The notes under the pieces are model-generated. The model saw nothing but the letters and a program-made list of their open reading frames with translations, was not told the origin of the DNA and did not search any database. Below, one piece after another: positions 26,067 through 41,747 of a stretch of DNA of 64,000 nucleotides (positions are counted from its first letter, which is position 1; each line of letters begins with the position of its first letter). The stretch lies in the sequence record ON568341.1; one strand, written 5' to 3'. The DNA comes from Escherichia phage UE-S1. The position numbers and the translations under genes are program-made.

Positions 26067-26078
26067 TTCAAAAAGTAC

Positions 26079-26106
26079 TTGTAAACTAAGTTTAAAAGCG
26101 TATAAT
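26079..26106 (+). promoter_or_regulatory. early sigma70-type promoter
   Basis: TTGTAA, 16 nt spacer, TATAAT(26101-26106); hairpin GCGGGGAGTGGTTCCCCGC. Confidence 0.5.
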
Positions 26107-26156
26107 ACTTTACATCAAGGCGGGGAGTGGTTCCCCGCTCAAACGAGGATTTAAAA

Positions 26157-26396
26157 ATGGCTAGTACTAAAACTTACAACGGACACAAAAACAAAACTCA
26201 TTGGAATGTAAGCCTTTGGATTAATAACGGTGAGTCATTGTATCGGCTTGCACAAAGTTGCATCGCACAAAGTAGAACTAAAGATATTGCTGCGGAATGT
26301 ATGTACCGCAGATTAAAAGCCAACGGTACTACTACAACACCGGACGGATTCAAATATAGCACTACTGCGATCCGTGCTGCAATGGTTGGAATGTAA
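26157..26396 (+). CDS. hypothetical early protein (79 aa)
   Basis: ATG 26157 after ACGAGGA SD; paralog of 24117..24356. Confidence 0.55.
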   Translation: MASTKTYNGHKNKTHWNVSLWINNGESLYRLAQSCIAQSRTKDIAAECMYRRLKANGTTTTPDGFKYSTTAIRAAMVGM

Positions 26397-26453
26397 TATT
26401 CAGTACTGAGATAATGGCGGGTAATAGTTCCCGCCTTTACTGAGGGTTATCTA

Positions 26454-26714
26454 ATGAGTAAAGTAATTAGCTATACAGCACTAAGCAAGACATTATCTAT
26501 TAGCCAGTGCACCGATGGTTATTGGCTATTTGATGAAACGCGTGGCATGAATTTAGCCATGCGTGCAAAAACTGCTGAGGCGGCGTATCTTGAAGCATTG
26601 GAATACTACCAGGAACGTTTAAAGGAAGTAGAAGAAGATTATAAAAGCCTCAAAGCGAAAGTAGATCATTTCGTCGGTCAATTCATCGAGGAAGACGACG
26701 ACAAACAATATTGA
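26454..26714 (+). CDS. hypothetical early protein (86 aa)
   Basis: ORF with GAGGG SD. Confidence 0.5.
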   Translation: MSKVISYTALSKTLSISQCTDGYWLFDETRGMNLAMRAKTAEAAYLEALEYYQERLKEVEEDYKSLKAKVDHFVGQFIEEDDDKQY

Positions 26715-26722
26715 AAAAGTAC

Positions 26723-26750
26723 TTGCAATTAGTTTTCAGTACTGTATAAT
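26723..26750 (+). promoter_or_regulatory. early sigma70-type promoter
   Basis: TTGCAA(26723-26728), 16 nt spacer, TGTATAAT(26743-26750). Confidence 0.55.
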
Positions 26751-26800
26751 GGTTTACATCAAAGGGAGAAATGGTTCTCCCTGGTAATGAGGAAAATAAA

Positions 26801-27022
26801 ATGGCTAATATCACTACTCTTTCCCAACTGGAAGCACTGGTGAAATCTATGCGGGAACATGCCGACAAAATCGGCGTACAAGATCCAGCCGTTTGCTTCT
26901 GCGACGAATTGAATGATGATACACTGGTAATAGCAGAAGTCCAGGACGTTTCTAACTATTCCTCGCGTTACACTGGCGGCGTAGCAAATAAAGGCGACTT
27001 CTGTTTATACCTTACAAAATAA
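26801..27022 (+). CDS. hypothetical early protein (73 aa)
   Basis: ATG 26801 after TGAGGAAA SD and leader hairpin GGGAGAAATGGTTCTCCC. Confidence 0.5.
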   Translation: MANITTLSQLEALVKSMREHADKIGVQDPAVCFCDELNDDTLVIAEVQDVSNYSSRYTGGVANKGDFCLYLTK

Positions 27023-27190
27023 CAACGCGGGGAGATAATAACTCCCCGTTACTTTTTCAGTACTGAATCATTTAATAGACGGATCTCGGCACCCGGTGGG
27101 TTAGTGACTGTTTCGTCTTGATGTAGTAATTATGCCAGTACTGGATGCACTTGTCAACAACTATTTTTCAAATACTTTTTATTAAAATAC

Positions 27191-27218
27191 TTGCAATTAG
27201 TTTTTAAACGCGTATAAT
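27191..27218 (+). promoter_or_regulatory. early sigma70-type promoter
   Basis: TTGCAA(27191-27196), 16 nt spacer, TATAAT(27213-27218). Confidence 0.55.
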
Positions 27219-27265
27219 GTTTTGCATAGGGGGAGCGGTTCCCCTGGTAACTAAGGAATAAGAAA

Positions 27266-27502
27266 ATGCTCGAACAAATCAAATCAACGTCTGCGAATGT
27301 AACGGGAACTGTATCACACTTTACTAGTGATGAATCGCGTGGTGTTCCTTATTGTGCTGTACATGTAAACACTGATGGCAACTACTGGTTTACGGTTTAC
27401 GGATCATATTCATTTGGTCGGCCAGGACATCAAAAAATCCTGGATAAAGTACAGCCAACGGGTAAAAATATCACTGCTGAAATGTTTTATAAAAAATCAT
27501 AA
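27266..27502 (+). CDS. hypothetical early protein (78 aa)
   Basis: ORF after leader hairpin GGGGGAGCGGTTCCCC; AAGGAA SD. Confidence 0.5.
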   Translation: MLEQIKSTSANVTGTVSHFTSDESRGVPYCAVHVNTDGNYWFTVYGSYSFGRPGHQKILDKVQPTGKNITAEMFYKKS

Positions 27503-27507
27503 AGTAC

Positions 27508-27535
27508 TTGATAATAGTTTTTAGTACTGTATAAT
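27508..27535 (+). promoter_or_regulatory. early sigma70-type promoter
   Basis: TTGATA, 16 nt spacer, TGTATAAT(27528-27535). Confidence 0.5.
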
Positions 27536-27586
27536 ATTTTACATCGCAAGGGGGAGCGGTTCCCCCTGGTAACTAAGGATAATAAA

Positions 27587-27886
27587 ATGAAAATTGCAAT
27601 CATCGCCCTGGCTTTATCTGTTTCCTCTTTCGCTGTTAATGCGTCATTAGATGTAAGTAGTGAAAAATTCATTCAGTGCACTGTTGCAATGACCGATGAA
27701 AGTACTGGCGAGATTGTATTAAAGGATTTAGAGATCCAGCCGGAAGCATTTAAAAACGGCCCGTTCCATGAAGAAGACGAAAACGGTAGCACATCAATTT
27801 ATTATGATGCCAGTACTAAACGCGGTTCGGTCACTGTAATGGATACTGAGAAAGTAACGCATACCGGCGTTATTAATTGCCGTTGA
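27587..27886 (+). CDS. small secreted/periplasmic protein (signal peptide)
   Basis: N-term MKIAIIALALSVSSFAVNA-S resembles Sec signal peptide with AxA cleavage site. Confidence 0.5.
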   Translation: MKIAIIALALSVSSFAVNASLDVSSEKFIQCTVAMTDESTGEIVLKDLEIQPEAFKNGPFHEEDENGSTSIYYDASTKRGSVTVMDTEKVTHTGVINCR

Positions 27887-27907
27887 TAGATACTACGGGG
27901 TAACATC

Positions 27908-28138
27908 ATGACTAAGCGAATTGTTTTACTTAACGAAAGCAGTACTACACAACTACTTAACGCCGTGCATTATGATATTGAAACGAGCGTTAATCTTATC
28001 AGTACTGTAGTACTGTTGGACACTGGAAAGGTCGCCAATGATAAAGCGATTGCAGGTATATTAACGGATCTTGAGCCTGGTAGCAGTGCACCAATAACGT
28101 TAAATGGTAAAGTGTTTAATATTTTACTCACTGATTAA
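27908..28138 (+). CDS. hypothetical early protein (76 aa)
   Basis: ORF with GGGG SD-like; followed by terminator. Confidence 0.45.
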   Translation: MTKRIVLLNESSTTQLLNAVHYDIETSVNLISTVVLLDTGKVANDKAIAGILTDLEPGSSAPITLNGKVFNILLTD

Positions 28139-28144
28139 GTACAT

Positions 28145-28166
28145 AGCCCACCTGGTGGGCTTTTTT
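28145..28166 (+). terminator. intrinsic terminator
   Basis: AGCCCACCTGGTGGGCT hairpin + TTTTTT. Confidence 0.6.
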
Positions 28167-28220
28167 GTTTTTGTAGTATCGTAGTACTGAGATACTTTGA
28201 AAATAGTTTTAAGAAAGTAG

Positions 28221-28248
28221 TTGACATTACCGCAGAAAAGCGTAGAAT
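28221..28248 (+). promoter_or_regulatory. early sigma70-type promoter
   Basis: TTGACA(28221-28226), 16 nt spacer, TAGAAT; followed by ~120 nt structured leader. Confidence 0.45.
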
Positions 28249-28371
28249 GTATTACATCAAGACGGGGAGCACTAAGTAGACCGCCAGTAAGTCGAACGAA
28301 AAACTGGACACGTCGAGAAAACTTTGATACACTAATAAACGTAAACTAAACTTTAATTGAGGATTTATAAA

Positions 28372-28854
28372 ATGGCTAATGTAAAATCATTTCTGAAAGC
28401 ACTGATTTCTAACGACACTGCTATTGCGGCTGAATTGCTGGCGGATCTGGATAGCGATACCATGAAAGCAGTACGCAACAATTTTAACATTGCGTACAGT
28501 GAAGCTAAAGAACTGCAAGCCAAAAAGATAGCAGAACTGGAAGAACAGAAAAAAGCCCGTGAAGAAGAACTACAAGCAACGATTGAAAGTATTCAGGCGG
28601 CGGTTGCAGGGTTGGATCTGGAAGTAGTTATTGAAATGGCACATAAAGCACTGGCAGTTAAGTACGGGGAAGATAAGCCAGTAACTAAACCTAAAAAATG
28701 GATTCAGGAACGCGTAACGGTTGTTCTTGATAATGGCGAGGAACATTTAATTCCCGTGCGTGGTAACTGCATTGCGGTAGTTCTGGATGCTATCAAAGAA
28801 AGCGGATTGACTCGCGAGGAATGGATCGAAGCTCACCGCAAAATTGAAGCATAA
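28372..28854 (+). CDS. hypothetical early protein (160 aa)
   Basis: ATG 28372 after TGAGGA SD; track ORF 28357 trimmed. Confidence 0.5.
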   Translation: MANVKSFLKALISNDTAIAAELLADLDSDTMKAVRNNFNIAYSEAKELQAKKIAELEEQKKAREEELQATIESIQAAVAGLDLEVVIEMAHKALAVKYGEDKPVTKPKKWIQERVTVVLDNGEEHLIPVRGNCIAVVLDAIKESGLTREEWIEAHRKIEA

Positions 28855-28875
28855 CAATTAAAGTACTGAATCACT

Positions 28876-28902
28876 AGCCCACTTCTTATAGTGGGCTTTT
28901 TT
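28876..28902 (+). terminator. intrinsic terminator
   Basis: AGCCCAC-ttcttata-GTGGGCT hairpin + TTTTTT. Confidence 0.6.
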
Positions 28903-29129
28903 GTGTTTATCGTTTACCAGTCCACTAGCACCGCCTAGAATCGATTCTAACGCATTAAACTGATTATCTGATGAATAGCCCTAGCTGGTGGCGTTAATGC
29001 CGTTAGAAAGCGATTGAGGACGTTTAAAGTATTTTGCAAAAAGTAATAAAAAGTACTTGCACGATTAAGAGATTAGAGTATAATTAATTACATCAAGACA
29101 AGACACCTTAACTAACTGAGGATATAAAG

Positions 29130-29282
29130 ATGAATACTTATGAACTGGATTGTTTCACTTTACAAGTAATGTCAGTATGCAGTAAAAAAGATTGGTCATC
29201 AAAGGAATTTAAAGCAGTTATTGCGTGTGCAAAACACGGCAAGACTATCAATGAAACGGCATCAATCATTGATAAACTTTAA
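29130..29282 (+). CDS. small early protein (50 aa)
   Basis: TGAGGA SD; preceded by TTGCAC..TATAAT promoter; under ORF-track cutoff. Confidence 0.4.
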   Translation: MNTYELDCFTLQVMSVCSKKDWSSKEFKAVIACAKHGKTINETASIIDKL

Positions 29283-29290
29283 AAAATAGT

Positions 29291-29319
29291 TTGACAATAG
29301 TTTTAAGTACTGCGATAAT
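29291..29319 (+). promoter_or_regulatory. early sigma70-type promoter
   Basis: TTGACA(29291-29296), 17 nt spacer, GATAAT. Confidence 0.45.
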
Positions 29320-29354
29320 ACATACATCAACTACTGAATAGGAATAAAAAAACA

Positions 29355-29582
29355 ATGGCTATCATCATTACTTACGTATCTGGTACTACTGGCACTGCTT
29401 CAACTGTTGCTGTAATTACTAATAAGAAAGGAGCGGAATTACATTTTGCAATGGATAATTGGGCCGTGAAGGAGTTCGGACCGTGGGCAAGTGTAGCATA
29501 CATTGAAACCTATCAAGTGCCATCGATTAGCTTAACTGATTTAGGTGTAGATCGAATCTTATGCCTGGATGAATTAATTTAA
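29355..29582 (+). CDS. hypothetical early protein (75 aa)
   Basis: ORF downstream of promoter; weak SD. Confidence 0.45.
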   Translation: MAIIITYVSGTTGTASTVAVITNKKGAELHFAMDNWAVKEFGPWASVAYIETYQVPSISLTDLGVDRILCLDELI

Positions 29583-29668
29583 AAAAGTACTTGCAAAGTA
29601 AATCGAATAAAGTATAATACATTACATCAAGGGGAGAAAATGGTTCTCCCCACTAAGAGGAAACTAAT

Positions 29669-29812
29669 ATGAAAACTTGTCAATGTGGTAAAAAATCTAT
29701 TACTGGTTTGAAACGGGGCGTTGCACTTTGCCAGTACCATTATAATTTACAAGTATGGGGTAAAGAATGGGCCGATCAAGTGGAAGCAATTAAGAAAGCA
29801 AAAAGTAAGTAA
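29669..29812 (+). CDS. small Cys-containing early protein (47 aa)
   Basis: AGAGGAAA SD after leader hairpin GGGGAGAAAATGGTTCTCCCC; CxC..C pattern. Confidence 0.4.
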   Translation: MKTCQCGKKSITGLKRGVALCQYHYNLQVWGKEWADQVEAIKKAKSK

Positions 29813-29893
29813 AAATATTATCACAGTACTATTGACATAGATTGATAGTACTGGCATAATAGATTTTATCAAGACAACTAAGAGGAAATTAAA

Positions 29894-30238
29894 ATGGCTA
29901 ACATCAATACTATAGCAGCACAAAATATTAACCTGTCTTCTGTTGAAGTTGTACACATTGCCGCCCGGCGTTGGTTCCAGGCGTCTTATGGTAATACTTA
30001 TTTCTCTTTAACGGTAGATGTTGAAATCAATGGCGAATTTATTGAAGTAGTAAACGTGCCGTTCCAATATGGCTACGGGGATCATTTTGACACTGTAGCA
30101 ATGGAAGAATTTAGCAAGGTTATTAATATGGAAGGTAAAGAGTTTTTACGCGGTTCTTATCTTTCCCGTTTTTGCCGTGATAATAATATTACTGTTTATA
30201 GTTCTGTTAGTGATGTTAAACGCAAAAAAGATCTTTAA
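29894..30238 (+). CDS. hypothetical early protein (114 aa)
   Basis: AGAGGAAA SD; paralog of 35732..36055 (shared ..YGYG.. and C-terminal DVKRKKD). Confidence 0.55.
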   Translation: MANINTIAAQNINLSSVEVVHIAARRWFQASYGNTYFSLTVDVEINGEFIEVVNVPFQYGYGDHFDTVAMEEFSKVINMEGKEFLRGSYLSRFCRDNNITVYSSVSDVKRKKDL

Positions 30239-30318
30239 TTAGCTTTACTTTATGCAGATACTTTGATATAGTGTCTGCATAGGGGAAAGAAATTAAATCA
30301 ACTTAAGAGGATAGTAAA

Positions 30319-30588
30319 ATGAAAAATATCAGTACTTTAATCGATGCAGGCACACATGTTCGTCGGTCTATGGTTGCAACCAGTTCTACAAAACAAGTAG
30401 CGAGCGGTTATCTTGTATTTGTGCACGATGGAAAACTCCTGGAACGTTCAATCAATTTTGATGTTAAAAACAATTGCCGTTTTATTATCTTTAAGCGTGA
30501 GCAATATAAAATTGATTTACCAGCAAAGCCCATTAGTGGGGCGTACAACGTGCAATCATTGTTTGAGCGTCAACCATACACCTATTAA
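30319..30588 (+). CDS. hypothetical early protein (89 aa)
   Basis: AAGAGGA SD. Confidence 0.5.
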   Translation: MKNISTLIDAGTHVRRSMVATSSTKQVASGYLVFVHDGKLLERSINFDVKNNCRFIIFKREQYKIDLPAKPISGAYNVQSLFERQPYTY

Positions 30589-30639
30589 TCAAAACAACGT
30601 TAGCGGTCGATTTAGGCCGCTTATACTGGGGATTATATA

Positions 30640-30810
30640 ATGAATACTAATCAAGTACTGAACGAGATTGAAAGCATCATTAAACCGATGAAGCGTACTG
30701 ATGCAATGTTAACACCGGAAGAATGCCGCTTATATGAGCGTTACAGCGTCGAACAAGTCCAGGCAATGGCCCGTATCCGTCCGGTTGCCAGTACTGATAA
30801 GGCGGCGTAA
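30640..30810 (+). CDS. small early protein (56 aa)
   Basis: GGGG SD-like; TAATATG coupling to next gene. Confidence 0.4.
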   Translation: MNTNQVLNEIESIIKPMKRTDAMLTPEECRLYERYSVEQVQAMARIRPVASTDKAA

Positions 30811-30811
30811 T

Positions 30812-31021
30812 ATGCTTACTGTACAGGATAAGATCGACATCTTAAAGGTTAATATGTATGTGATTGATGCCGTACCTGGTAAAGTATTTGCATACGATGA
30901 CACCACTGTAAGCAATTTCTACTATAGCCAGGACGTGGGGGATCTTTCTGTACAGTCGGTTATTGAAAATGTAGTTAATGCAGCGTATGAGCATTTACTT
31001 TCAAATAGTACTTGCAATTAG
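30812..31021 (+). CDS. hypothetical early protein (69 aa)
   Basis: ATG 30812 immediately after upstream stop; track ORF 30734 trimmed. Confidence 0.45.
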   Translation: MLTVQDKIDILKVNMYVIDAVPGKVFAYDDTTVSNFYYSQDVGDLSVQSVIENVVNAAYEHLLSNSTCN

Positions 31022-31090
31022 TTTTCAGTACTGTATAATGTTTTACATGAAGGGGAGAAATAGTACTCCCCACTAATTAAGGAATATGAA

Positions 31091-31237
31091 ATGAAAGCAT
31101 CAAAAAAGAGTAATACTAAGAAAGCATGTTCACCTTTCGCTGGGGTATTCCCTTTACGTTTCGTTGATGAAGTGGTTTCCTACCCGCCGGGCCTTACTCC
31201 TGAGATGGTAGAAAGTTTGCGTAAATCTAAAAAATAA
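31091..31237 (+). CDS. small early protein (48 aa)
   Basis: AAGGAA SD after promoter TTGCAA..TGTATAAT and leader hairpin. Confidence 0.4.
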   Translation: MKASKKSNTKKACSPFAGVFPLRFVDEVVSYPPGLTPEMVESLRKSKK

Positions 31238-31318
31238 TACTTGCAATTAGTTTTTAGTACTGTATAATGTTTTACATGAAGGGGAGAAATGATTCTCCCC
31301 AAGAACAGGAGAAACAAA

Positions 31319-31471
31319 ATGAAACAATACAACGCTCGGTTTGATGTTACTATCGGCAACGGCAAAGGTCAATTCTCTTTCAGTACTCGTAAGAGTTATA
31401 CAGAAAACTTCTTGCGTAATTGTGCACTGACCGCCGCACAAATTAAACATTATTTTCAGGCTAAAAAATGA
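31319..31471 (+). CDS. small early protein (50 aa)
   Basis: ATG 31319 after CAGGAGAAA SD and leader hairpin GGGGAGAAATGATTCTCCCC. Confidence 0.45.
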   Translation: MKQYNARFDVTIGNGKGQFSFSTRKSYTENFLRNCALTAAQIKHYFQAKK

Positions 31472-31706
31472 AATCATTAGCTTATTATAGTTCGGCCCTG
31501 GTCGGTGCATTGATCGCGGCATTGTTAGTAGCTTATCTATTCTTTATGGTGATTTAAATGAATCCTAACGGTATAATTTACAGTACTCCTAAAACGAAAG
31601 CAGATAAAGCTAAAGCACGTAAAGCGAAAGTAAAGGAATACATCAAGCAAGGCATGACACGAAAGGCGGCGATTCTAAAAGCTAAAAATAAATGAAAAAA
31701 GTGGTT

Positions 31707-31744
31707 GACTTCGGTCAGCCATTTTGCTATTATATAATCATTGA
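31707..31744 (+). terminator. terminator hairpin with embedded promoter (composite element)
   Basis: GTGGTTGACTTCGGTCAGCCA + TTTTGCTATTATATAATC; TTGACT inside stem. Confidence 0.5.
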
Positions 31745-31837
31745 GAGATAGCTCACTAGCCCACGGGGTGCGGGAGTGTATCTATTATATAAGCATTGAG
31801 TACTGAAAACTATTTTAAAAGTATTTGCAGAAAGTAC

Positions 31838-31865
31838 TTGCAAACTATCTCAATTGGCGTATAAT
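31838..31865 (+). promoter_or_regulatory. early sigma70-type promoter
   Basis: TTGCAA(31838-31843), 16 nt spacer, TATAAT(31860-31865). Confidence 0.55.
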
Positions 31866-31916
31866 GTTTTACATCGCAAGGGGAAACGGTTTCCCCTAGT
31901 AATAAGGAATAAAATC

Positions 31917-32258
31917 ATGACTATTGCAATTGTACAATCTAACTTTGAAAATGAAATCATCGCCCAAGCACTGCGTTTAAATGATGGTCGGGCCGAAATT
32001 AATTACGGTTTCAATTCAGGCGGTTGTGAAAAATATCAGTACTTTATAACTGCTGATGGCGGTGTCCTGGGTATTAATACAGTTATTGTAAACATTCAGA
32101 AAATTAATTTCAATGATCCAGACGATAGCCAGTTTTACATTATAGGCGTAGACGTGAACTATGAGGATGACTCACTAACTGATGATTACACTGGCGAGAA
32201 GTTAGAAAGTGCATACGGTGAAGATGATTATCAGTCAGTACCAGAAGATTTCGAATAA
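31917..32258 (+). CDS. hypothetical early acidic protein (113 aa)
   Basis: ATG 31917 after TAAGGAAT SD and leader hairpin GGGGAAACGGTTTCCCC. Confidence 0.55.
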   Translation: MTIAIVQSNFENEIIAQALRLNDGRAEINYGFNSGGCEKYQYFITADGGVLGINTVIVNIQKINFNDPDDSQFYIIGVDVNYEDDSLTDDYTGEKLESAYGEDDYQSVPEDFE

Positions 32259-32358
32259 TATTAAAAAATAGTTTGACAATAGATTATAGTACTGTATAAT
32301 AGTTTACATCAAGAAACGGGAAGTAACAGTACTTCCCTACTAACAGAGAGAAAACAAA

Positions 32359-32571
32359 ATGGCTGATATCCGCACTTTACTGAAAAATGCAAAACGAGTT
32401 TTATTTTCTGATCACGAACATTTAAACAAGGATATTACTGGCGTTCGGAATATCAAAGATGTAAAACGTGTTATGGGTATCTATTGCAATATGAAACGTG
32501 TTGGCACGTTCGGTAATAAATTTCTATACCAGGCGGGGGATTACAATTTTACACTGACTATCATTAACTAA
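32359..32571 (+). CDS. hypothetical early protein (70 aa)
   Basis: AGAGAGAAA SD after hairpin; promoter TTGACA..TGTATAAT upstream. Confidence 0.5.
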   Translation: MADIRTLLKNAKRVLFSDHEHLNKDITGVRNIKDVKRVMGIYCNMKRVGTFGNKFLYQAGDYNFTLTIIN

Positions 32572-32653
32572 AAATATTATCACAGTACTATTGACATAGT
32601 TTGATAGTACTGGCATAATAGATTTTATCAACTACACTACTAAGGAATTAAAA

Positions 32654-32833
32654 ATGGCTATCATCGCAAAAACTGAAATCATCGGCCTGGATTCTATCAT
32701 CATGACGTTTGAAGATCAAAAAGGTATGTATGTAGTTTCCTATGGTGATTATGTTCGGGAGTATGAAACAGTAGACGAAGCCTTTGAAAGTTACATTCGC
32801 CAGGTGAATAAAGCATACGACGATTACCGCTAA
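32654..32833 (+). CDS. small early protein (59 aa)
   Basis: TAAGGAAT SD; promoter TTGACA..GGCATAAT upstream. Confidence 0.45.
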   Translation: MAIIAKTEIIGLDSIIMTFEDQKGMYVVSYGDYVREYETVDEAFESYIRQVNKAYDDYR

Positions 32834-32946
32834 AATATATTACCAGTACTATTAAAGATATTGACAACGTTTGATAGTACTGGCATAATAAGTTTTATAA
32901 ACAGTAGTCAAATAGTAGTTAACTTAACAAAAGAGAGAGAAACAAA

Positions 32947-33090
32947 ATGATCGCACTGGATTCATTCATCGATGCAGTTCTGGCAAAAACTGGCGAGGAT
33001 CTGACCGCAGAACAATACGCAATGATCGAGCAATGCCAGCAAGACGGTAAATCGGTGAAAGATACTGTTAAGATTATCCGCAAGATGTAA
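32947..33090 (+). CDS. small early protein (47 aa)
   Basis: AGAGAGAGAAA SD-like; followed by hairpin AGCCCAT..GGTGGGCT. Confidence 0.4.
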   Translation: MIALDSFIDAVLAKTGEDLTAEQYAMIEQCQQDGKSVKDTVKIIRKM

Positions 33091-33196
33091 GATTATAAGC
33101 CCATTAGTTAACGCTGGTGGGCTTTAATCATTTACCCTATACAATGCCAGTACTAAACCGTTTATCTCATTAGAATGCATTACAGGACGTTTAACA

Positions 33197-33394
33197 ATGA
33201 TTAGCATGAAATCAGTACAAAAACAAATAGAAACATTATCAAAAATTAAACGTAAACAGTACTCATTAGAATATAATATCAATGGTAACTATCATCTAAT
33301 GAAAGAGAATAATTTTATCGTCATTGATGAATCATTGCAAATTATTAGTATAGTACTGAAAGCATTAATTAATGATAGAAAAAGGTTAAAATAA
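33197..33394 (+). CDS. hypothetical protein (65 aa)
   Basis: ORF; TAATG coupling to zinc-finger gene. Confidence 0.45.
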   Translation: MISMKSVQKQIETLSKIKRKQYSLEYNINGNYHLMKENNFIVIDESLQIISIVLKALINDRKRLK

Positions 33395-33651
33395 TGGCAG
33401 TAGGATTCGCGAAAGATGGAGCCGAGCAAGATGAGATTAACGCAGTTATTCAAGCCGCCGTTAACCACGCTAGAAAGCAAATTAACGCACAAATAGAATC
33501 ACTGATACATTGCCTCGACTGCGGCGATAAAATCCCTGAGAATCGCCGACAGGCTGTTAAGGGATGTAAGTACTGCATTAATTGCCAAGTGGATCATGAT
33601 AGTACTTTTAAAAGAGATCCGCGTAATTGTTGGCATAGATCTATGAGATAA
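33394..33651 (+). CDS. C4 zinc-finger protein (DksA/TraR-like)
   Basis: C-x2-C (HCLDCGD) ... C-x2-C (KYCINC) spacing typical of DksA/TraR-type zinc fingers. Confidence 0.55.
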   Translation: MAVGFAKDGAEQDEINAVIQAAVNHARKQINAQIESLIHCLDCGDKIPENRRQAVKGCKYCINCQVDHDSTFKRDPRNCWHRSMR

Positions 33652-33715
33652 AAAGTAATTGACAGTACTGAAAGATAGTGTATAATGTTTTATATCTTAA
33701 CTGAGGATAGAAATC

Positions 33716-34072
33716 ATGGGAATACAACATATCACGCGGACCACTGACAATGGCGAGATCACTGGTTATCAAGTACAGGGCAAAGTAGCACAATTGCAGT
33801 ACTGGTTTGTTAAACGTGGAATCATTGCACCGGATCTTGATTATGACCGTGTAGCGTTTATTGATTCTCTTTATGTTGATCCTGATAGTCGGGGCAATGG
33901 TGAAGGTAACGAATTAATGAATGCCTTTATCGATGCCGCCGATGATTCAGATTGTATCATCTTAGAATGCGATACGGGAGAAGATAACGCCTTTAATCTT
34001 AAAGAATGGTACGAAGGATTCGGATTCGAGGTACTGATCGATAGTGAATATCCTATCATGATTTTATCATAG
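33716..34072 (+). CDS. GNAT-family acetyltransferase-like protein
   Basis: LYVDPDSRGNGEGNELMNAF resembles GNAT motif A (R/Q-x-x-G-x-G/A); promoter TTGACA..TGTATAAT upstream. Confidence 0.5.
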   Translation: MGIQHITRTTDNGEITGYQVQGKVAQLQYWFVKRGIIAPDLDYDRVAFIDSLYVDPDSRGNGEGNELMNAFIDAADDSDCIILECDTGEDNAFNLKEWYEGFGFEVLIDSEYPIMILS

Positions 34073-34150
34073 TACTTGCATTTAGTTTTCAGTACTGTTA
34101 TAGTACTTGCATCAAGGGGAAACATCTTCCCCTACTAAGAGGAAATAAAA

Positions 34151-34339
34151 ATGGAAAACTTATCAAGTATTTTAGTACAAGATGATTTCGGTAATCCTGG
34201 AAGTGCTATCATTGTTCGGGGCAATAAAGCAACGTTTGTTATTGCTGGTGGACCCGTACAGCGTAGCATTAAAAATAATGCTGTTACCATTAATAATGTA
34301 CGCTATCGCTTAGATAAAGAATTAATTCATAAACTGTAA
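34151..34339 (+). CDS. hypothetical early protein (62 aa)
   Basis: AAGAGGAAA SD after leader hairpin. Confidence 0.5.
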   Translation: MENLSSILVQDDFGNPGSAIIVRGNKATFVIAGGPVQRSIKNNAVTINNVRYRLDKELIHKL

Positions 34340-34424
34340 AAAAGTACTGGACAATAGATTATAGTACTGTATAATAGTTTACATGAAGGGGAGAAATGAT
34401 TCTCCCCACTAAGAGGAAAGAAAA

Positions 34425-34637
34425 ATGCAAGGTCAACTAATCGTTCGTAAATGGTCTGATACTAACGAAAAACCGTGGGATGTACAATACATCGCCCCAA
34501 ATGGTGAATCCAGATATCAACCAGGTGTAACGCATAGTACTGAGCAATTCGCCGCCGCTCATCGCGAACGTCTGTTACAATCAATGCAGCACGGTTCCGG
34601 TGAAAAATTCATTCAGGATCATTGGCTGAAAGATTAA
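34425..34637 (+). CDS. hypothetical early protein (70 aa)
   Basis: AAGAGGAAA SD after hairpin GGGGAGAAATGATTCTCCCC. Confidence 0.5.
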   Translation: MQGQLIVRKWSDTNEKPWDVQYIAPNGESRYQPGVTHSTEQFAAAHRERLLQSMQHGSGEKFIQDHWLKD

Positions 34638-34723
34638 AAAGTACTTGCACAGTACTGAATAAAGTGTATAATGTTTTATATCGGAAGGGGAATAGTTCCC
34701 CTCCTAACAAAGAGGAAAGTATA

Positions 34724-34897
34724 ATGGTCCAGGTAGAATTAACAGTACTGAAAGATCTGTTTTATCGGATTGGTACTACTGGCGAATATCCGAAGGGTGA
34801 TAATGCAAAACTTTACGTATCACTCGACTTATGGCAACGCGAACAATTAGCAACGGCCTGGCGTAAAGGCAAAGCAGATAGCGAGGTGAAAGCATGA
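34724..34897 (+). CDS. hypothetical early protein (57 aa)
   Basis: ATG 34724 after AGAGGAAA SD; track ORF 34622 trimmed. Confidence 0.45.
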   Translation: MVQVELTVLKDLFYRIGTTGEYPKGDNAKLYVSLDLWQREQLATAWRKGKADSEVKA

Positions 34898-35057
34898 AAG
34901 AATTCTTATTTGAAGTAGTGTTTCAAGGTGTCGGTAATAACCAACTGATTCGAACAAGTGGTTATAATGTTAACCAGGCATGGAATAACATTAAACAAAT
35001 GTACCCGAACGCTATCACATATCGCAACCCGAAAGAAGTTTAAAAATAATTGAAAAA

Positions 35058-35095
35058 GGGATTGACTCCGGTCAGTCCCTTTGCTATTATATACG
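35058..35095 (+). terminator. terminator hairpin with embedded promoter (composite element)
   Basis: AAAAAGGGATTGACTCCGGTCAGTCCCTTTGCTATTATATA. Confidence 0.55.
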
Positions 35096-35191
35096 CATAG
35101 AAACAAATTAGCCCACCGGGTGCATAAATGTATCTATTGTTTGCTGGTGGCTAGTACTATCAAGTACTGAAAACTATTTTTAAAAAAGTAC

Positions 35192-35219
35192 TTGCAAAGT
35201 ATCACGATAAGCGTATAAT
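35192..35219 (+). promoter_or_regulatory. early promoter (upstream of tandem pair)
   Basis: TTGCAA(35192-35197), 16 nt spacer, TATAAT(35214-35219). Confidence 0.55.
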
Positions 35220-35313
35220 GTTTTACATCAGGACGGGGAACGAAATAAGTAACCCCGTTAAGTAGTCCAGGAGTAAGACATACGAAAAACTCCCCTGATA
35301 AAATAGTTTGACA
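35214..35313. repeat. 100-bp exact repeat (copy 2)
   Basis: Appears identical by eye to 25301..25400. Confidence 0.7.
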
Positions 35314-35335
35314 ATAGAAAGTAAACGAGTATAAT
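35308..35335 (+). promoter_or_regulatory. early promoter (downstream of tandem pair)
   Basis: TTGACA(35308-35313), 16 nt spacer, TATAAT(35330-35335). Confidence 0.5.
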
Positions 35336-35368
35336 ACTTACATCAACCACTGATAAGGAAACATTAAA

Positions 35369-35644
35369 ATGCGGACTTTACTTACAGCTAACGAAATCGA
35401 GCAAGTACTGACTACTAATCTGGAACAATGGAAACGTGAAGCAGATATCCAGGCGGTTCAATGCCTTAACGATAAGTTAACGCCAGATGACTTAAGCACG
35501 ATTGTTGATCCACAATTTTATGAAGATATTCACGACACGTCTTTAAGCGTCGAGGATGTACTTGATAAGCACTACATTGATACTGATTTACATGTTTACG
35601 GTCGTAAAAACTTTATCACTATTCACGACATTTACAATACTTAA
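35369..35644 (+). CDS. hypothetical early protein (91 aa)
   Basis: ORF after dual promoters; AAGGAAA SD. Confidence 0.55.
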   Translation: MRTLLTANEIEQVLTTNLEQWKREADIQAVQCLNDKLTPDDLSTIVDPQFYEDIHDTSLSVEDVLDKHYIDTDLHVYGRKNFITIHDIYNT

Positions 35645-35731
35645 GTATTGACAAAGTATCTTAGTACTGTATAATAGTTTACATCAAGCGAGGGGAATGG
35701 TTCCCCTCCTAACAAAGAGAGAGAAATAAAA

Positions 35732-36055
35732 ATGGCTATGATCCTTACCCAGAAAGTAGAACTGAAAATTGTAACCTCCTTTGACATTAAAGTTAATCGG
35801 TGGACTGATAGCCACGGCAATACTTACCACTCCTGCTACGTGTCCGCATTGATTGGTGATCGCTGGGAAGACCTGGGACACGAAACCTTTACATACGGTT
35901 ACGGCACACAAGGCGAGTACACGGGTTTAGAAATCATTAAGGAAACTGTAATAGGTTTCAACCCGAAAGAGAAAGTACTACACAGAATTGAGAAAGAGAT
36001 CAACAAAGAAATTACAGTTCGCTACTACGATGTAAAACGTAAGAAAGACATGTAA
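35732..36055 (+). CDS. hypothetical early protein (107 aa)
   Basis: AGAGAGAGAAA SD after hairpin; paralog of 29894..30238. Confidence 0.55.
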   Translation: MAMILTQKVELKIVTSFDIKVNRWTDSHGNTYHSCYVSALIGDRWEDLGHETFTYGYGTQGEYTGLEIIKETVIGFNPKEKVLHRIEKEINKEITVRYYDVKRKKDM

Positions 36056-36150
36056 TAGAATCCATTTAAAGTACTATTTGACATTGCCCAGATAGTACTT
36101 TATAATAGACTCTAACTTGTAGTACTAACTCAACTAATAGGATGTATACC

Positions 36151-36546
36151 ATGATTACTAAATTCTACGCTACCCGTGAAGCTGCCCGTATTGTTGCACG
36201 CGAGGAAGGAGCAGCATTTAAAGACATGGGCAAAGATGCAACGAAAGGTCAACGCTGGGCCGTACAGTTCAAAGAAATCTCTGATATTGTGAATTCACCT
36301 GAGCCAGTACTGACAGCAGCAGAACTAAAACGAGCGGATATGCTGGCGGCAATACTTGACGCACAAGATGAGTTTATCGCTGACTCTGATATCAAAGTAC
36401 AGGTAAACCACACCGCATGGACTCACGCGGATCACCTGGCAAACCTTAAGCGTCCAAGTGAACTGATTCGCAACCAGAAAGAGATCCGACATGATCGTAA
36501 GGGTAATCGTGTAACAGTATACAGTAAACGCCGCCAGGTTATCTAA
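36151..36546 (+). CDS. hypothetical early protein (131 aa)
   Basis: ATG 36151 after AGGA; paralog of 24443..24709; followed by hairpin GGCGGGA..TCCCGCC + T-run. Confidence 0.55.
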   Translation: MITKFYATREAARIVAREEGAAFKDMGKDATKGQRWAVQFKEISDIVNSPEPVLTAAELKRADMLAAILDAQDEFIADSDIKVQVNHTAWTHADHLANLKRPSELIRNQKEIRHDRKGNRVTVYSKRRQVI

Positions 36547-36607
36547 TAACTTGCAGTACTAACAACACGGCGGGATCAGTTCCCGCCTTTTTTATAGGAC
36601 AAACAAA

Positions 36608-36862
36608 ATGATTAAGGTTCAACTATATAAAGATAACATCTTACGGGTACACTATAAAGCACCTCAGAGAATCATCACAAAGGCCGTACAGCTTGCTAAT
36701 GAGTTTATTAATGGTAACCTATTACCTAGGAAGTTAAGCAACGGAAAACTGCGTGTAATCGACGTGGACACTAACAACAGGATAGTAATCGAGAACACAG
36801 GAAAAATAAACCTATATGAACACCAACAATACAATAAGAAAATAAAACTAATATCACGTTGA
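36608..36862 (+). CDS. hypothetical early protein (84 aa)
   Basis: ORF with AGGA SD-like. Confidence 0.45.
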   Translation: MIKVQLYKDNILRVHYKAPQRIITKAVQLANEFINGNLLPRKLSNGKLRVIDVDTNNRIVIENTGKINLYEHQQYNKKIKLISR

Positions 36863-36915
36863 CAGTACTCAAATGTTTTAGTATTATGTACACATACCAA
36901 CACGGGAGAAACAAA

Positions 36916-37134
36916 ATGAAATTATCTAAAATCGAAAAGAAAACTATTGATGAAGCAGTTAAGCACGGTTATACCTTTCGTAATGATTCACATTTTACCA
37001 ATTTTCAACAGGGGTATCGTACTATTAAAAAACTAATTGACAAAGGTTTATTAGTTGAAGTCAATAATGGGAACGGTATCGAGTATCAGCCAACCCAAGA
37101 CGCATTATCTTTAAAGAAATATAATATTATCTAA
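36916..37134 (+). CDS. hypothetical early protein (72 aa)
   Basis: ATG 36916 after GGGAGAAA; promoter TTGACA(36860)..TATTAT upstream. Confidence 0.5.
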   Translation: MKLSKIEKKTIDEAVKHGYTFRNDSHFTNFQQGYRTIKKLIDKGLLVEVNNGNGIEYQPTQDALSLKKYNII

Positions 37135-37191
37135 TTGACAGTACTCAAATGTTTTAGTACTATATGTACATACCAACACGGGGGAAACAAA

Positions 37192-37434
37192 ATGATTACT
37201 TTAGAAAAACGTATCAAAGAAACTACATCGCTGGTGGAACTGTTAACAGTACTCAAATGTAAAACAACACCATTTAGCACGCCGGACTTTATTAATATGG
37301 TTGATGTTAATGGTCGCTATCGTATCACGGTCGAACAAGGAGCGGCGAAAGTATTCAGTACTAAAAACACGAAGGAAGTGATCCACGCCGTTAATGTTAA
37401 AAAAGTAGTTGCCATTGATAGTAAAGTACTGTAA
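37192..37434 (+). CDS. hypothetical early protein (80 aa)
   Basis: ATG 37192 after GGGGGAAA; promoter/leader duplicated from 36859-36915. Confidence 0.5.
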   Translation: MITLEKRIKETTSLVELLTVLKCKTTPFSTPDFINMVDVNGRYRITVEQGAAKVFSTKNTKEVIHAVNVKKVVAIDSKVL

Positions 37435-37465
37435 TATAGTTTCATTAACTCAAGGAGAACATGCA

Positions 37466-38050
37466 ATGCGTAATTATACTAAATTCATCCGTACACTGTC
37501 AGAAATGGAAACCAACAAAGAGATCCTTTCAGCTTGTCGGTTAGCTGGCCTGGAGATCATCGGTGCTGGTTCTTCCCGTATAGTTTTCGCTTTAAATGAT
37601 CGGTTAGTGATTAAGGTCGCGAATTGTGATGCGGGTGTAGAACAAAATGAAACTGAATGTAAGGTATGGAATTTTTTAGACTATGACCGCCCTCAGTTGA
37701 AACAGTACTTTGCAAAGGTGCATATGCATTTATGCGATCCTGATAATATGTTTATCGTTATGGATCGGTTGAGTACTGCAAGCAAAGGTAGTGTGAAGCA
37801 CGTAAACGCGTGCAATGAATTAAAGTACAATATTAAACGTAATGCAATCGAACGCCATCACCGCTTTGCTGATGCACTACAACACGTCGATGATACATTA
37901 TCAACACTAACGATAAGAGATATCAGAAAACAGAATATCGGCCAGGATCGTAATGGCCTTATTAAAGTACTTGATTACGGTTTAACCTGCAATATCTGGA
38001 ATCAGTACTATAAAAAGCGTGATGTGGCAGCAAGTAAGGTAACACGATAA
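37466..38050 (+). CDS. protein-kinase-like protein (194 aa)
   Basis: G-loop-like GAGSSRIVF, VIKVA lysine motif, RDIRKQNIG catalytic-loop-like, KVLDYG DFG-like; AAGGAGAA SD. Confidence 0.55.
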   Translation: MRNYTKFIRTLSEMETNKEILSACRLAGLEIIGAGSSRIVFALNDRLVIKVANCDAGVEQNETECKVWNFLDYDRPQLKQYFAKVHMHLCDPDNMFIVMDRLSTASKGSVKHVNACNELKYNIKRNAIERHHRFADALQHVDDTLSTLTIRDIRKQNIGQDRNGLIKVLDYGLTCNIWNQYYKKRDVAASKVTR

Positions 38051-38067
38051 AAAAGATTAAAAAAGGG

Positions 38068-38105
38068 ATTGACTCCGGTCAGTCCCTTTGCTATTATATA
38101 TCCAT
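38068..38105 (+). terminator. terminator hairpin with embedded promoter (composite element)
   Basis: AAAAAAGGGATTGACTCCGGTCAGTCCCTTTGCTATTATATA. Confidence 0.55.
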
Positions 38106-38191
38106 TGAGAGATAACTCACTGACCCATAGGGTGCGGAAGTGTATCTATTATATAAGTATTCAGTACTGAAAACTATTTTTAAAAAAGTAC

Positions 38192-38219
38192 TTGCAAACT
38201 ATCTCAATGAGCGTATAAT
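38192..38219 (+). promoter_or_regulatory. early sigma70-type promoter
   Basis: TTGCAA(38192-38197), 16 nt spacer, TATAAT(38214-38219). Confidence 0.55.
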
Positions 38220-38274
38220 GTTTTATATCGAGAGGGGGAAATGGTTCTCCCTAGTACTAAAAGGAATCAAGACG

Positions 38275-38496
38275 ATGACTACTATGACCTGCGTTCACGC
38301 TTCAAATCTTCTGAATGATGCAGCATTTAAAGCAGGTGAAGAATATCAATGCTATCGGGATGAAAATAAAAAAGTTTTTGTAGTTGATAATAATGGTTTC
38401 CATATTGAATTACAATCCGGCTTCACTGGTTTAAATGGTAAATCAGTATGGGGCGTACAGGATGATAAAGGTACATATCATTTTAAACGTAATTAA
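38275..38496 (+). CDS. hypothetical early protein (73 aa)
   Basis: ATG 38275 after AAAAGGAAT SD and leader hairpin GGGGGAAATGGTTCTCCC. Confidence 0.5.
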   Translation: MTTMTCVHASNLLNDAAFKAGEEYQCYRDENKKVFVVDNNGFHIELQSGFTGLNGKSVWGVQDDKGTYHFKRN

Positions 38497-38577
38497 GTAT
38501 TGACAAAGTATATCAGTACTGTATAATAGTTTACATCAAGGGGAGAATGGTTCTCCCCACTAAAAGGAAACAAAATT

Positions 38578-38850
38578 ATGTCCAGCTACTCCGCTACTAT
38601 GATCATTAAAGATATGAACGGTAATCCTACTTCTGCTGGTGGATCATTTGGAAACATTAATTTAGATGGTCGGTTATCCATGCAATCAGCCATCGATGCA
38701 GCGAAAGAAGTTTTTAAGAATGAATGTACTGTTAGTAAGCTGGATTATATGGGTTTCGCTATCGAGAAAACTACTCGTTTTGTGAACTACAAAAATCCAC
38801 TGATGATTGATACTAACCTGAAAGCTAACGAAGTGGGGTACTTATTATGA
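38578..38850 (+). CDS. hypothetical early protein (90 aa)
   Basis: AAAAGGAAA SD after hairpin; promoter TTGACA..TGTATAAT. Confidence 0.55.
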   Translation: MSSYSATMIIKDMNGNPTSAGGSFGNINLDGRLSMQSAIDAAKEVFKNECTVSKLDYMGFAIEKTTRFVNYKNPLMIDTNLKANEVGYLL

Positions 38851-39038
38851 CAGTAGAAGAAGTAAAAAAAGTACTGGCAGTACTACGATATCATAATCAT
38901 TGCAAGGTGAAGAATGATCCTGATTATCTTGATTCATCCCTGGAGGAAGACACCTTGAACGCTATAAGCCATATGCAGACATTAGCAAAGCGTATGACTG
39001 AAAAGAACATGCCGGACTATATCGGAAATAAAATTTAA
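38847..39038 (+). CDS. hypothetical early protein (63 aa)
   Basis: ATGA overlap with previous gene. Confidence 0.45.
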   Translation: MTVEEVKKVLAVLRYHNHCKVKNDPDYLDSSLEEDTLNAISHMQTLAKRMTEKNMPDYIGNKI

Positions 39039-39124
39039 AAAGTACTTGCATTGTAGTTAGATTAACGTATAATGTTTTATATCGAGAGGGGAAATGGTTT
39101 CCCCTCAAGTCCAGGAGATACACC

Positions 39125-39388
39125 ATGAACACTATCGAAATCACTATCAATGCACACGTATACGACAACGTAGTACTGCAAACTACTATGACCGCCAATG
39201 ATACCAGTACTTTGCGGAATACTGTTATTAGTGCTGTATGTGCCGCTATCGGTGATGTATCCCTGGAAAATTCAGAACACATCAACAACGGTTTCACTAT
39301 GTGCAAACGTGATAACGCAAAACATATCATCGTGGAAGGTTACGGCGGTGTAGAATTTAATGTTTATATGAAAAAAGTACTTGCATAA
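39125..39388 (+). CDS. hypothetical early protein (87 aa)
   Basis: CAGGAGA SD after hairpin GGGGAAATGGTTTCCCC. Confidence 0.5.
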   Translation: MNTIEITINAHVYDNVVLQTTMTANDTSTLRNTVISAVCAAIGDVSLENSEHINNGFTMCKRDNAKHIIVEGYGGVEFNVYMKKVLA

Positions 39389-39455
39389 TAACTAAAACAA
39401 AGTATAATGTTTTGCATAGGGGGAGATATCCTCCCCCACTAAAAGGAGTAATAAA

Positions 39456-39680
39456 ATGGCTAACTTTGATGAACTGATGCGGGAAGTAGCTTACCTGGCA
39501 GAAGAGAAGAAATCATTCGATTCTATCTATAACACCGCTCACCGTGATTCAGTACTGGCATGTAACCAGGATCAAAAAGATGAACTAATCGCCACCTATC
39601 ATGAAGCATGGAAGTACTACCGACAATGGGAGAAAGAAGAAAGTGAGTCTACCATTGACGGCCTCAATAATCTAATCTAA
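39456..39680 (+). CDS. hypothetical early protein (74 aa)
   Basis: AAAAGGAG SD after hairpin GGGGGAGATATCCTCCCCC. Confidence 0.5.
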   Translation: MANFDELMREVAYLAEEKKSFDSIYNTAHRDSVLACNQDQKDELIATYHEAWKYYRQWEKEESESTIDGLNNLI

Positions 39681-39756
39681 AAGTTTTATTTCAGTACTAT
39701 TGACATAGCTTGATAGTACTGATGTAATAACTTTACTAACTACAAGGGGAAACATA

Positions 39757-40014
39757 ATGGATCAATTCACACAATATCGGGTAAATCCTCAAGCTATGGC
39801 CTACGTAGAAGACCATAAAACGTTACCAGTACTGCAACCAGTTAAAGGCCGTATCTATCGTGGCCTTGCCTGGGATACGGCCCAGGATGGATATAAAACC
39901 GTCGCCGTGGGTATGTATTGCGGTGATGGTGAATGGTTTGATCCAAATAATCCGGTATCCATTGACAGTACTGAAAAAATGAAATGGGCCGACTACATCG
40001 AAGATATTTCATAA
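39757..40014 (+). CDS. hypothetical early protein (85 aa)
   Basis: AAGGGGAAA SD; promoter TTGACA..GATGTAAT. Confidence 0.5.
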   Translation: MDQFTQYRVNPQAMAYVEDHKTLPVLQPVKGRIYRGLAWDTAQDGYKTVAVGMYCGDGEWFDPNNPVSIDSTEKMKWADYIEDIS

Positions 40015-40104
40015 AAACTATTTGACAGTACTAACCAGTAATGTATAATGTTTTACATAGAGCGGGGGAATAGTTCTCCCGCCAATAGTTTGGAGTAAAA
40101 CATT

Positions 40105-40305
40105 ATGTCTATCGCTATCGCCCTGGTTGAAGTACTGAAAGAAGCTAAAGCCAACCTTATCGACGTAAAGATCCAGGAACTACAAAACGGCTTAATCGGC
40201 TGTACTTGTACCGCTGGTGGAGCGGCAGACTATCGAGAACACGAATCACTCGAATCACTGGTTCGGTATCTTACCATGATCGTTGATGATTGGAGAATCA
40301 TCTAA
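40105..40305 (+). CDS. hypothetical early protein (66 aa)
   Basis: TGGAG SD after hairpin GCGGGGGAATAGTTCTCCCGC. Confidence 0.5.
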   Translation: MSIAIALVEVLKEAKANLIDVKIQELQNGLIGCTCTAGGAADYREHESLESLVRYLTMIVDDWRII

Positions 40306-40322
40306 CAAAAAAGAATAAAAAA

Positions 40323-40360
40323 AGGGATTGACTCCGGTCAGTCCCTTTGCTATTATATAC
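40323..40360 (+). terminator. terminator hairpin with embedded promoter (composite element)
   Basis: AAAAAAAGGGATTGACTCCGGTCAGTCCCTTTGCTATTATATA. Confidence 0.55.
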
Positions 40361-40550
40361 GCATAGACAAAAACTAGCCCACAGGGTGCATAGGTGTATC
40401 CAAAATATATAGTTAATAACGGTGAGTAACTATCTGCTGGTGGAACTAAAACTATTAATAAAAAAGTATTGACAAAGTATATCAGTACTGCAATAATGTA
40501 TCTCGTAGGGCGGCAATGGTGCGACGGCCCACAAAGTTAGGAGATTCACC

Positions 40551-40883
40551 ATGAGTACTTCAATCGCTATCGTTAAAGCTTTCATCCGTACTAATGTTTC
40601 CTCTGTATTCATCGACGGCCTCGACCGTAACGTAGAATACTCAATCATTATCGCACAAACGGCAAACGGTTCTCGGTACATCCTGAATGATAGTGAAGCA
40701 AATCACTACTACTTCACTAAAGCCACTGGCTTTAAACGCATCGATGCTGATGTAGTATACGCTAAGATGAATAAGCTGGTAGACAAGATTAACGCGAAAG
40801 GTACTATCGATTTACAGTACTGGACCGAAACCGATCCAGAATATGGATCTCACCGCTACCTGAATCCAGGTATCAAAATGTAA
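40551..40883 (+). CDS. hypothetical early protein (110 aa)
   Basis: TAGGAGA SD; promoter TTGACA(40470)..TGCAATAAT. Confidence 0.5.
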   Translation: MSTSIAIVKAFIRTNVSSVFIDGLDRNVEYSIIIAQTANGSRYILNDSEANHYYFTKATGFKRIDADVVYAKMNKLVDKINAKGTIDLQYWTETDPEYGSHRYLNPGIKM

Positions 40884-40972
40884 AAAGTACTTGCATAGTA
40901 CTTAGATTCATGTATAATGTTTTACATAGAGAGGGGGAAATGGTTCTCCCTCCTAAATTAAGGAGTTTTATC

Positions 40973-41374
40973 ATGACCTTCTCAATCACTTCCTTCGCTG
41001 ACGTTTTAGTACTGGCCCGGACTTTTGGTAAAGCTGGCCTTGAGCACGCTGTAAGTAATGGTCATATGCACCCTGAATATTGCCGCATCATCGGTAGCTG
41101 CAAACGTTGGGCCGTGTCCCGTAACATTGAGATTGAAAACTTCAATGACGGCAACAACGAATATACAGTTGATGCAGTATTCGAAGCCGTTGATCTCGGC
41201 GGTATCTATAACACTAACCTGAATGATGTGCGTATCGTTCGCACGGGGTTCGGTGCTTATGATGTATCTATCCGTGAAGCTATGGACAAGGGATACATTA
41301 GCAAGGACCAGTTAGCTTACATCATGCAGCAAACTAAGGAACGTAACGAAGCACGTACTATCTTAGGGTTGTAA
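40973..41374 (+). CDS. hypothetical early protein (133 aa)
   Basis: ATG 40973 after TAAGGAG SD and hairpin GAGGGGGAAATGGTTCTCCCTCC. Confidence 0.55.
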   Translation: MTFSITSFADVLVLARTFGKAGLEHAVSNGHMHPEYCRIIGSCKRWAVSRNIEIENFNDGNNEYTVDAVFEAVDLGGIYNTNLNDVRIVRTGFGAYDVSIREAMDKGYISKDQLAYIMQQTKERNEARTILGL

Positions 41375-41442
41375 GCGTTACACATCACCAAACATCATAG
41401 GCCGCCTTGTAGCGGCCTTAACTATATCAGGAGTTCATACAC

Positions 41443-41652: not shown

Positions 41653-41680
41653 TGCGTAAAAGGATTTAGTACTGATTCAG

Positions 41681-41747
41681 AAAAAAGTCAAGGCGTTTTT
41701 TAAATTATGCGTTAAAAAAATGCATAGGTAATCCCTTGACTTTTTTG
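41681..41747. promoter_or_regulatory. large inverted repeat between early block and LGTNYQE array
   Basis: AAAAAAGTCAAGG (41681-41693) vs CCTTGACTTTTTT (41734-41747); AATGCGTA-like motif three times nearby. Confidence 0.4.

Follow-up and report, generated by a model that had tools for sequence, protein, structure and literature searches.

The locus and its genomic setting

The window analysed here, the whole stretch of 64,000 nucleotides from Escherichia phage UE-S1 (ON568341.1), derives from an Asteriusvirus jumbo coliphage that has E. coli as its host and a genome of 350 kb. Two short neighbouring genes in it code for a C4 zinc-finger protein and for a small acetyltransferase of the GNAT type, and together with an upstream open reading frame (ORF) and predicted expression signals they are arranged as follows:

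21923..41800, plus strand: context block, collinear with the direct terminal repeat (DTR) of about 20-21 kb of Asteriusvirus phages; right edge approximate
33197..33394, plus strand: upstream ORF, 65 aa (ORF list, sequence)
33394..33651, plus strand: coding sequence of a TraR/DksA-family C4 zinc-finger protein, YbiI-like subtype, 85 aa (ORF, Pfam, PHROG, PDB matches, alignments, AF2 model/Foldseek, NCBIfam)
33659..33686, plus strand: perfect sigma70-type promoter, TTGACA-16 nt-TATAAT (consensus scan, 12/12 matches)
33703..33707, plus strand: Shine-Dalgarno-like GAGGA, 8 nt 5' of the GNAT ATG (read from the sequence)
33716..34072, plus strand: coding sequence of a mini-GNAT acetyltransferase, 118 aa (ORF, Pfam, PHROG, alignment)

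Both coding sequences have exactly the extent, length and strand that a first-pass annotation of the window had assigned to them. In a blastn comparison of positions 1-23000 of phage fEgEco12 with the window, position 1 of fEgEco12 corresponds to 21923 and position 20,993 to about 41,800, and the DTR of fEgEco12, as confirmed via restriction digests, measures 20,993 bp (PMC13070987); a DTR annotation is also carried by record OQ718158. The two genes are located inside this DTR-equivalent block, which contains small plus-strand genes and about 39 plus-strand sigma70-like promoters with AT-rich discriminators (mean GC 27%), and from this location and these promoters an early expression of both genes is plausible. 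A scan of the whole window against Rfam at gathering thresholds returned no match. Since many sister phages already bear the same two annotations, zinc finger and acetyltransferase, in GenBank, the domain identities as such are not new; the Asteriusvirus genome papers on fEgEco12 and Sharanji mention neither gene.

With respect to expression signals, the TAA stop codon of the 65-aa ORF overlaps the ATG of the zinc-finger gene by one base (TAATG), which suggests that the two are co-transcribed and translationally coupled. Directly 5' of this pair no clear sigma70 promoter was found; the only features there are an isolated TACAAT and a hairpin around 33098-33125. The ORF itself has no family match in NCBIfam, and a conserved module made up of the zinc finger and its coupled upstream ORF was rejected, as the upstream ORFs of the window, of fEgEco12 and of the T4-like phage JS10 share no similarity. 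The spacer of 64 nt between the zinc-finger and GNAT genes harbours the perfect promoter, immediately followed by the AT-rich discriminator GTTTTATA. This promoter belongs to a repeated promoter family (D4), is conserved in vB_Ec-M-J and fEgEco12, and is predicted to be the GNAT gene's own.

A YbiI-like zinc-finger protein

The DksA/TraR-type and GNAT-type folds that had been proposed for the two proteins are both supported by profile searches, each passing its Pfam gathering threshold with a match far stronger than chance would give. The zinc-finger protein scores 43.3 bits with zf-dskA_traR (PF01258; cut-off 24.9, E = 3.5e-11, residues 39-68) and also matches PHROG_54, 'DksA-like zinc-finger protein' (E = 2.7e-18). 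It comprises a predicted N-terminal helix (residues 5-29), a zinc knuckle formed by C40, C43, C61 and C64, an IPExRR motif (47-52), a short helix (62-68) and a phage-specific basic tail, FKRDPRNCWHRSMR, at residues 72-85. The cysteine strings HCLDCGD (39-45) and CKYCINC (58-64), on which the family had originally been suggested, are indeed present; however, the first cysteine of the latter, C58, is not conserved among 65 homologs, while the four zinc ligands (CxxC-17-CxxC) are invariant in all of them and align with the cysteines of TraR. I47, R51, R52 and Q65 are likewise invariant, P48 and E49 nearly so, and the N-terminus MAxG[FW]AKDGAxQ is nearly invariant from phages through bacteria. Between sister phages the gene is under purifying selection, with 5-9 nonsynonymous versus 14-16 synonymous codon changes.

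The best match in both sequence and fold is YbiI of E. coli (PDB 2KGO; NCBIfam NF008243 / PRK11019), an 88-aa member of the TraR/DksA family, with a phmmer E-value of 3.4e-12 over residues 1-69 and, for the AF2 model, a Foldseek E-value of 1.5e-5. The two proteins have in common their length class, the N-terminus MAxG[FW]A(K/N)D..., the C4 spacing, IPExRR and CxxCQ. However, overall identity is only 39%, the C-terminal tail reads RNCWHRSMR in the phage protein versus GYNRRGSKDSQLR in YbiI, and, unlike YbiI of E. coli, the zinc finger is encoded by virulent phages. The score against the YbiI equivalog NF008243 is 80.9 bits and hence below the cut-off of 96, only profile positions 1-72 of 88 being covered and the tail staying unmatched. 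The protein also stays below the cut-offs of TIGR02419, the phage/conjugal plasmid C4 zinc finger of the TraR family (51.5 versus 59.7 bits), and of the TraR equivalog NF010268 (32.3 versus 108). It is YbiI-like rather than TraR proper.

The function of YbiI is itself sparsely documented, as the literature found on it consists of a single 'data not shown' remark from 2009, according to which overexpressed YbiI rescues dksA auxotrophy; its authors considered a role in iron metabolism more likely (PMC2613031).

The tails, RNCWHRSMR in phages and NRRGSKDSQLR in bacteria, exceed most of the protein in conservation, and TraR has nothing equivalent. The phage tail is invariant and shared, at 65-72% identity, with T4-like phages, and a 54-aa T4-like derivative retains only the second CxxC and the tail. 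A second metal site in the tail, formed by C80 and H82 with H68, was ruled out because position 68 varies between H, Y and N. The phage-type YbiI-like zinc finger is exchanged between unrelated lineages of virulent coliphages, the Asteriusvirus jumbo phages and the T4-like Straboviridae.

TraR of the F plasmid (PDB 5W1S, 6N57) and its phage homologs lambda Orf73, P2 Orf82, VHML Orf8 and VP882 Orf61, all regulators acting through the RNA polymerase (RNAP) secondary channel (PMC9239242), have the same three-part plan of an N-terminal helix, a C4 zinc globular domain and a C-terminal segment. Like those homologs, the zinc finger is carried by a proteobacterial phage. The match to TraR has an E-value of 5e-6 (phmmer, PDB) and its alignment ends at residues 69-72; identity to TraR is 26%, and the AF2 model superposes on RNAP-bound TraR with a TM of 0.51/0.59. 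R51 and R52 align with R48 and R49 of TraR, which contact the rim helices and beta'Si3, respectively (PMC9239242). RNAP binding is documented for five TraR homologs of phages or prophages, and burst size is increased by lambda Orf73 (PMC9239242). The zinc finger is likely to be an RNAP secondary-channel binder.

Two parts of TraR are, however, missing or apparently altered in the phage protein. In place of the C-terminal TraR helix that contacts betaSi1, the AF2 model has the short helix 62-68 followed by the conserved tail in a non-helical conformation, modelled at low confidence (pLDDT 50-68). In addition, DxxDxA, a motif that forms part of the N-terminal helix tip and is critical for the activity of TraR and Orf73 (Gopalkrishnan et al. 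2022, PMC9239242), is absent in register, the phage protein having V3, A6 and D8 where TraR has D3, D6 and A8. The nearest acidic pattern is D8-x-x-E11-x-D13, in which subfamily-wide conservation is limited to D8, E11 being a valine in bacterial relatives. C4 zinc-finger relatives do not all act like DksA or TraR (PMC9239242), and owing to the missing DxxDxA and the scores below the NCBIfam cut-offs for the TraR subfamily and YbiI, such an action is not established for the phage protein.

The conservation of the rim-binding residues but not of the catalytic-tip motif would also be expected of a passive competitor that plugs the secondary channel, like Rnk or Gfh1, instead of regulating transcription in the manner of TraR, and Rnk is noted to bind the channel and to compete without Gre function (PMC9239242). 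Such a plug would exclude host DksA, as well as GreA and GreB, and so blunt the ppGpp/DksA-dependent stringent response, allowing ribosome and tRNA synthesis to go on through the long cycle of a jumbo phage. We consider this unlikely, as the nearly invariant N-terminus points to a specific contact instead of an inert helix, and as the reported complementation of dksA by YbiI would mean that a DksA-like function is supplied rather than blocked.

Less probable again is that the TraR scaffold and the basic tail are directed at a partner other than RNAP, such as a nucleic acid, a factor related to metals or iron, or some other protein of the host. The high conservation of tails that TraR lacks, the derivative reduced to the second CxxC and the tail, and the score below the NCBIfam TraR cut-off would all fit such a target. 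However, the arginine pair and the IPE motif, through which TraR touches RNAP in its cryo-EM structure, show full or almost full conservation, and the fold matches that of RNAP-bound TraR, both of which speak against such a partner.

A mini-GNAT acetyltransferase

The second protein scores above the Pfam gathering cut-offs of three acetyltransferase families, namely Acetyltransf_1 (PF00583; 37.2 versus 20.7 bits, E = 4.1e-9), Acetyltransf_7 (PF13508; 33.5 versus 27) and Acetyltransf_10 (PF13673; 26.3 versus 23.6), and matches PHROG_1249, 'acetyltransferase' (E = 9.3e-10). The motif-A-like segment noted in the first-pass annotation, RGNGEGNELMNAF, is found at residues 59-71 and contains the acetyl-CoA loop (motif A, Q/R-x-x-G-x-G/A) as R59-G-N-G62-E-G64. 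Homologs were not easily collected, as a word-indexed search gave two clusters and a profile query nine, and an exhaustive HMMER search was needed to recover the family. In the resulting alignment of 41 sequences, with relatives at 30-48% identity plus one near-identical copy, G64 is invariant, as are W98 and Y99 within W98-Y99-E, and R59 and G62 are almost so; an N-terminal G-x-x-G-Y (G17-Y18) and D86/E89 are specific to the family. The usual general acid of GNATs is a conserved tyrosine in alpha4, and Y99 is the probable candidate for this role. Between sister phages the gene is under strict purifying selection, with no nonsynonymous versus 4-7 synonymous codon changes.

The canonical GNAT topology, beta1-alpha1-alpha2-beta2-beta3-beta4-alpha3-beta5-alpha4-beta6-beta7, is incomplete in this protein, as beta1-alpha1-alpha2 are missing. 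This mini-GNAT fold is shared with AcrVA5 (PDB 6IUF). However, the likeness is at the level of the fold only, with 22% identity in the structural alignment, the G-x-x-G-Y and D86/E89 motifs are not those of AcrVA5, and AcrVA5 does not figure among the best 60 of the 156 PDB sequences that the family profile matched at E <= 1. AcrVA5 is an anti-CRISPR mini-GNAT of about 92 aa that inactivates Cas12a through lysine acetylation, and type V-A CRISPR is not known from E. coli hosts. The small structural-genomics GNATs 1Y9W of B. cereus (140 aa) and 2G3A of A. tumefaciens (137 aa), together with YjdJ (5I0C, 93 aa), are 16-20% identical to the phage protein and, being all uncharacterised, give no functional information.

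Another phage-encoded GNAT, Rac (gp28) of LUZ19, serves the takeover of host transcription (PMC7552054); its gene adjoins those of the phage RNAP and of structural proteins outside any early or DTR block, unlike the gene in the window. Jumbo-phage GNATs have been predicted to work like Rac (Iyer et al. 2021, PMC7824862). Relatives of the mini-GNAT were found in phage-like arrays of small genes, and the domain recurs in large proteins, fused either to a PARP-type ADP-ribosyltransferase and ParB_N or to Amidoligase_2, fusions that fit the 'polyvalent proteins' which, according to PMC7824862, are injected. One distant relative is flanked by the tRNA-repair genes for RtcB and a CCA-adding enzyme.

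As to the substrate, a protein lysine or N-terminus appears the most likely acceptor because the acceptor side is open in the absence of alpha1-alpha2 and because AcrVA5 and Rac provide precedents. That the enzyme instead acetylates a small molecule (a polyamine, an amino acid, an aminoglycoside-like compound or a nucleotide sugar) or an amine linked to nucleic acid, be it aminoacyl-tRNA as with TacT/AtaT or a DNA base as with Mom, is a possibility of rather low probability. In its favour, a PDB sequence-profile search found the small-molecule acetyltransferases AAC(3)-XI and PAT at similar E-values, profile matches of similar strength extend over AAC(3)-XI, phosphinothricin, glucosamine and diamine acetyltransferases, and the one distant relative has tRNA-repair genes, for RtcB and the CCA-adding enzyme, on its two sides. 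However, alpha1-alpha2, the usual wall of a small-molecule acceptor pocket, are missing, the domain is fused to protein- and DNA-conflict domains in polyvalent-type proteins, and antibiotic resistance would make little sense for an early gene of a lytic phage. Both the tRNA-acetylating toxins and Mom exceed the phage protein in size, being full or extended GNATs, and on size and architecture a tRNA-acetylating toxin or a Mom-like DNA-modification enzyme is unlikely.

Two neighbours without conserved linkage

The distribution of the two genes does not single them out as a pair. The GNAT is present in 24 phage records in contrast to 967 for this type of zinc finger; of the two, T4-like JS10 carries just the zinc finger, in Klebsiella phage 05F01 no zinc finger adjoins the GNAT, and three metagenomic contigs likewise lack the adjacency. 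The adjacency is thus confined to the Asteriusvirus lineage, where it is kept in all records having both genes, but as these records are more than 90% identical in DNA this does not constitute independent evidence. Functional coupling by conserved synteny is therefore unsupported, and the word 'adjacent' in the first-pass annotation carries no functional weight, since each gene is found without the other outside the lineage.

In a functional pair, the GNAT would acetylate RNAP or the zinc finger, or the zinc finger would recruit the GNAT to RNAP. The genes do lie next to each other on the same strand of the same block, the Asteriusvirus records with both all keep this adjacency, and Rac provides a precedent for a phage GNAT acting on RNAP; in view of the high identity of those records, the unequal record counts, the partnerless genes of JS10, 05F01 and the three contigs, and the separate perfect promoter ahead of the GNAT, such a pair is nevertheless highly improbable. 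With separate expression signals and an adjacency confined to one lineage, nothing supports coupling.

Proposed roles in infection

We favour, with a probability of about 0.6, the reading that the locus holds two independent, separately expressed accessory genes, one for a YbiI-like binder of the RNAP secondary channel and one for a protein-acetylating mini-GNAT. The zinc finger would most likely dock at the rim of the secondary channel of host RNAP via its conserved zinc domain and the arginine pair R51/R52, and its N-terminal helix would enter the channel. By retuning initiation, or by merely occupying the channel, it might divert host transcription towards the phage, whose own promoters are predicted to be insensitive to it because of their consensus hexamers and AT-rich discriminators. 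The mini-GNAT would bind acetyl-CoA via its R-x-x-G-x-G loop and, probably with Y99 as general acid, acetylate an amine on a host macromolecule.

The role in host takeover or anti-defence that the first-pass annotation had considered plausible is a reasonable guess for both proteins, given the precedents of the TraR homologs (PMC9239242), the Rac GNAT (PMC7552054) and AcrVA5. It is, by comparison, quite doubtful that the zinc finger represents a mechanistically new, DxxDxA-less class of secondary-channel effectors or an effector acting away from RNAP, and/or that the mini-GNAT is an anti-defence enzyme inactivating an immune protein of E. coli in the style of AcrVA5.

The importance of these observations is modest, as the domain identities already stand in sister-phage GenBank records and as phage TraR homologs and GNATs are already known as classes of factors for host takeover. 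There are, however, three refinements that could inform experiments on the way in which jumbo coliphages dependent on host RNAP seize this enzyme within the first minutes: the YbiI-like subtype of the zinc finger without DxxDxA, its invariant phage-specific tail common to T4-like phages, and a mini-GNAT with a resemblance to AcrVA5, strict purifying selection on its gene and repeated use as a module of polyvalent-type proteins. In turn, a defined phage protein of the YbiI-like type could help to reveal the function of YbiI in E. coli itself.

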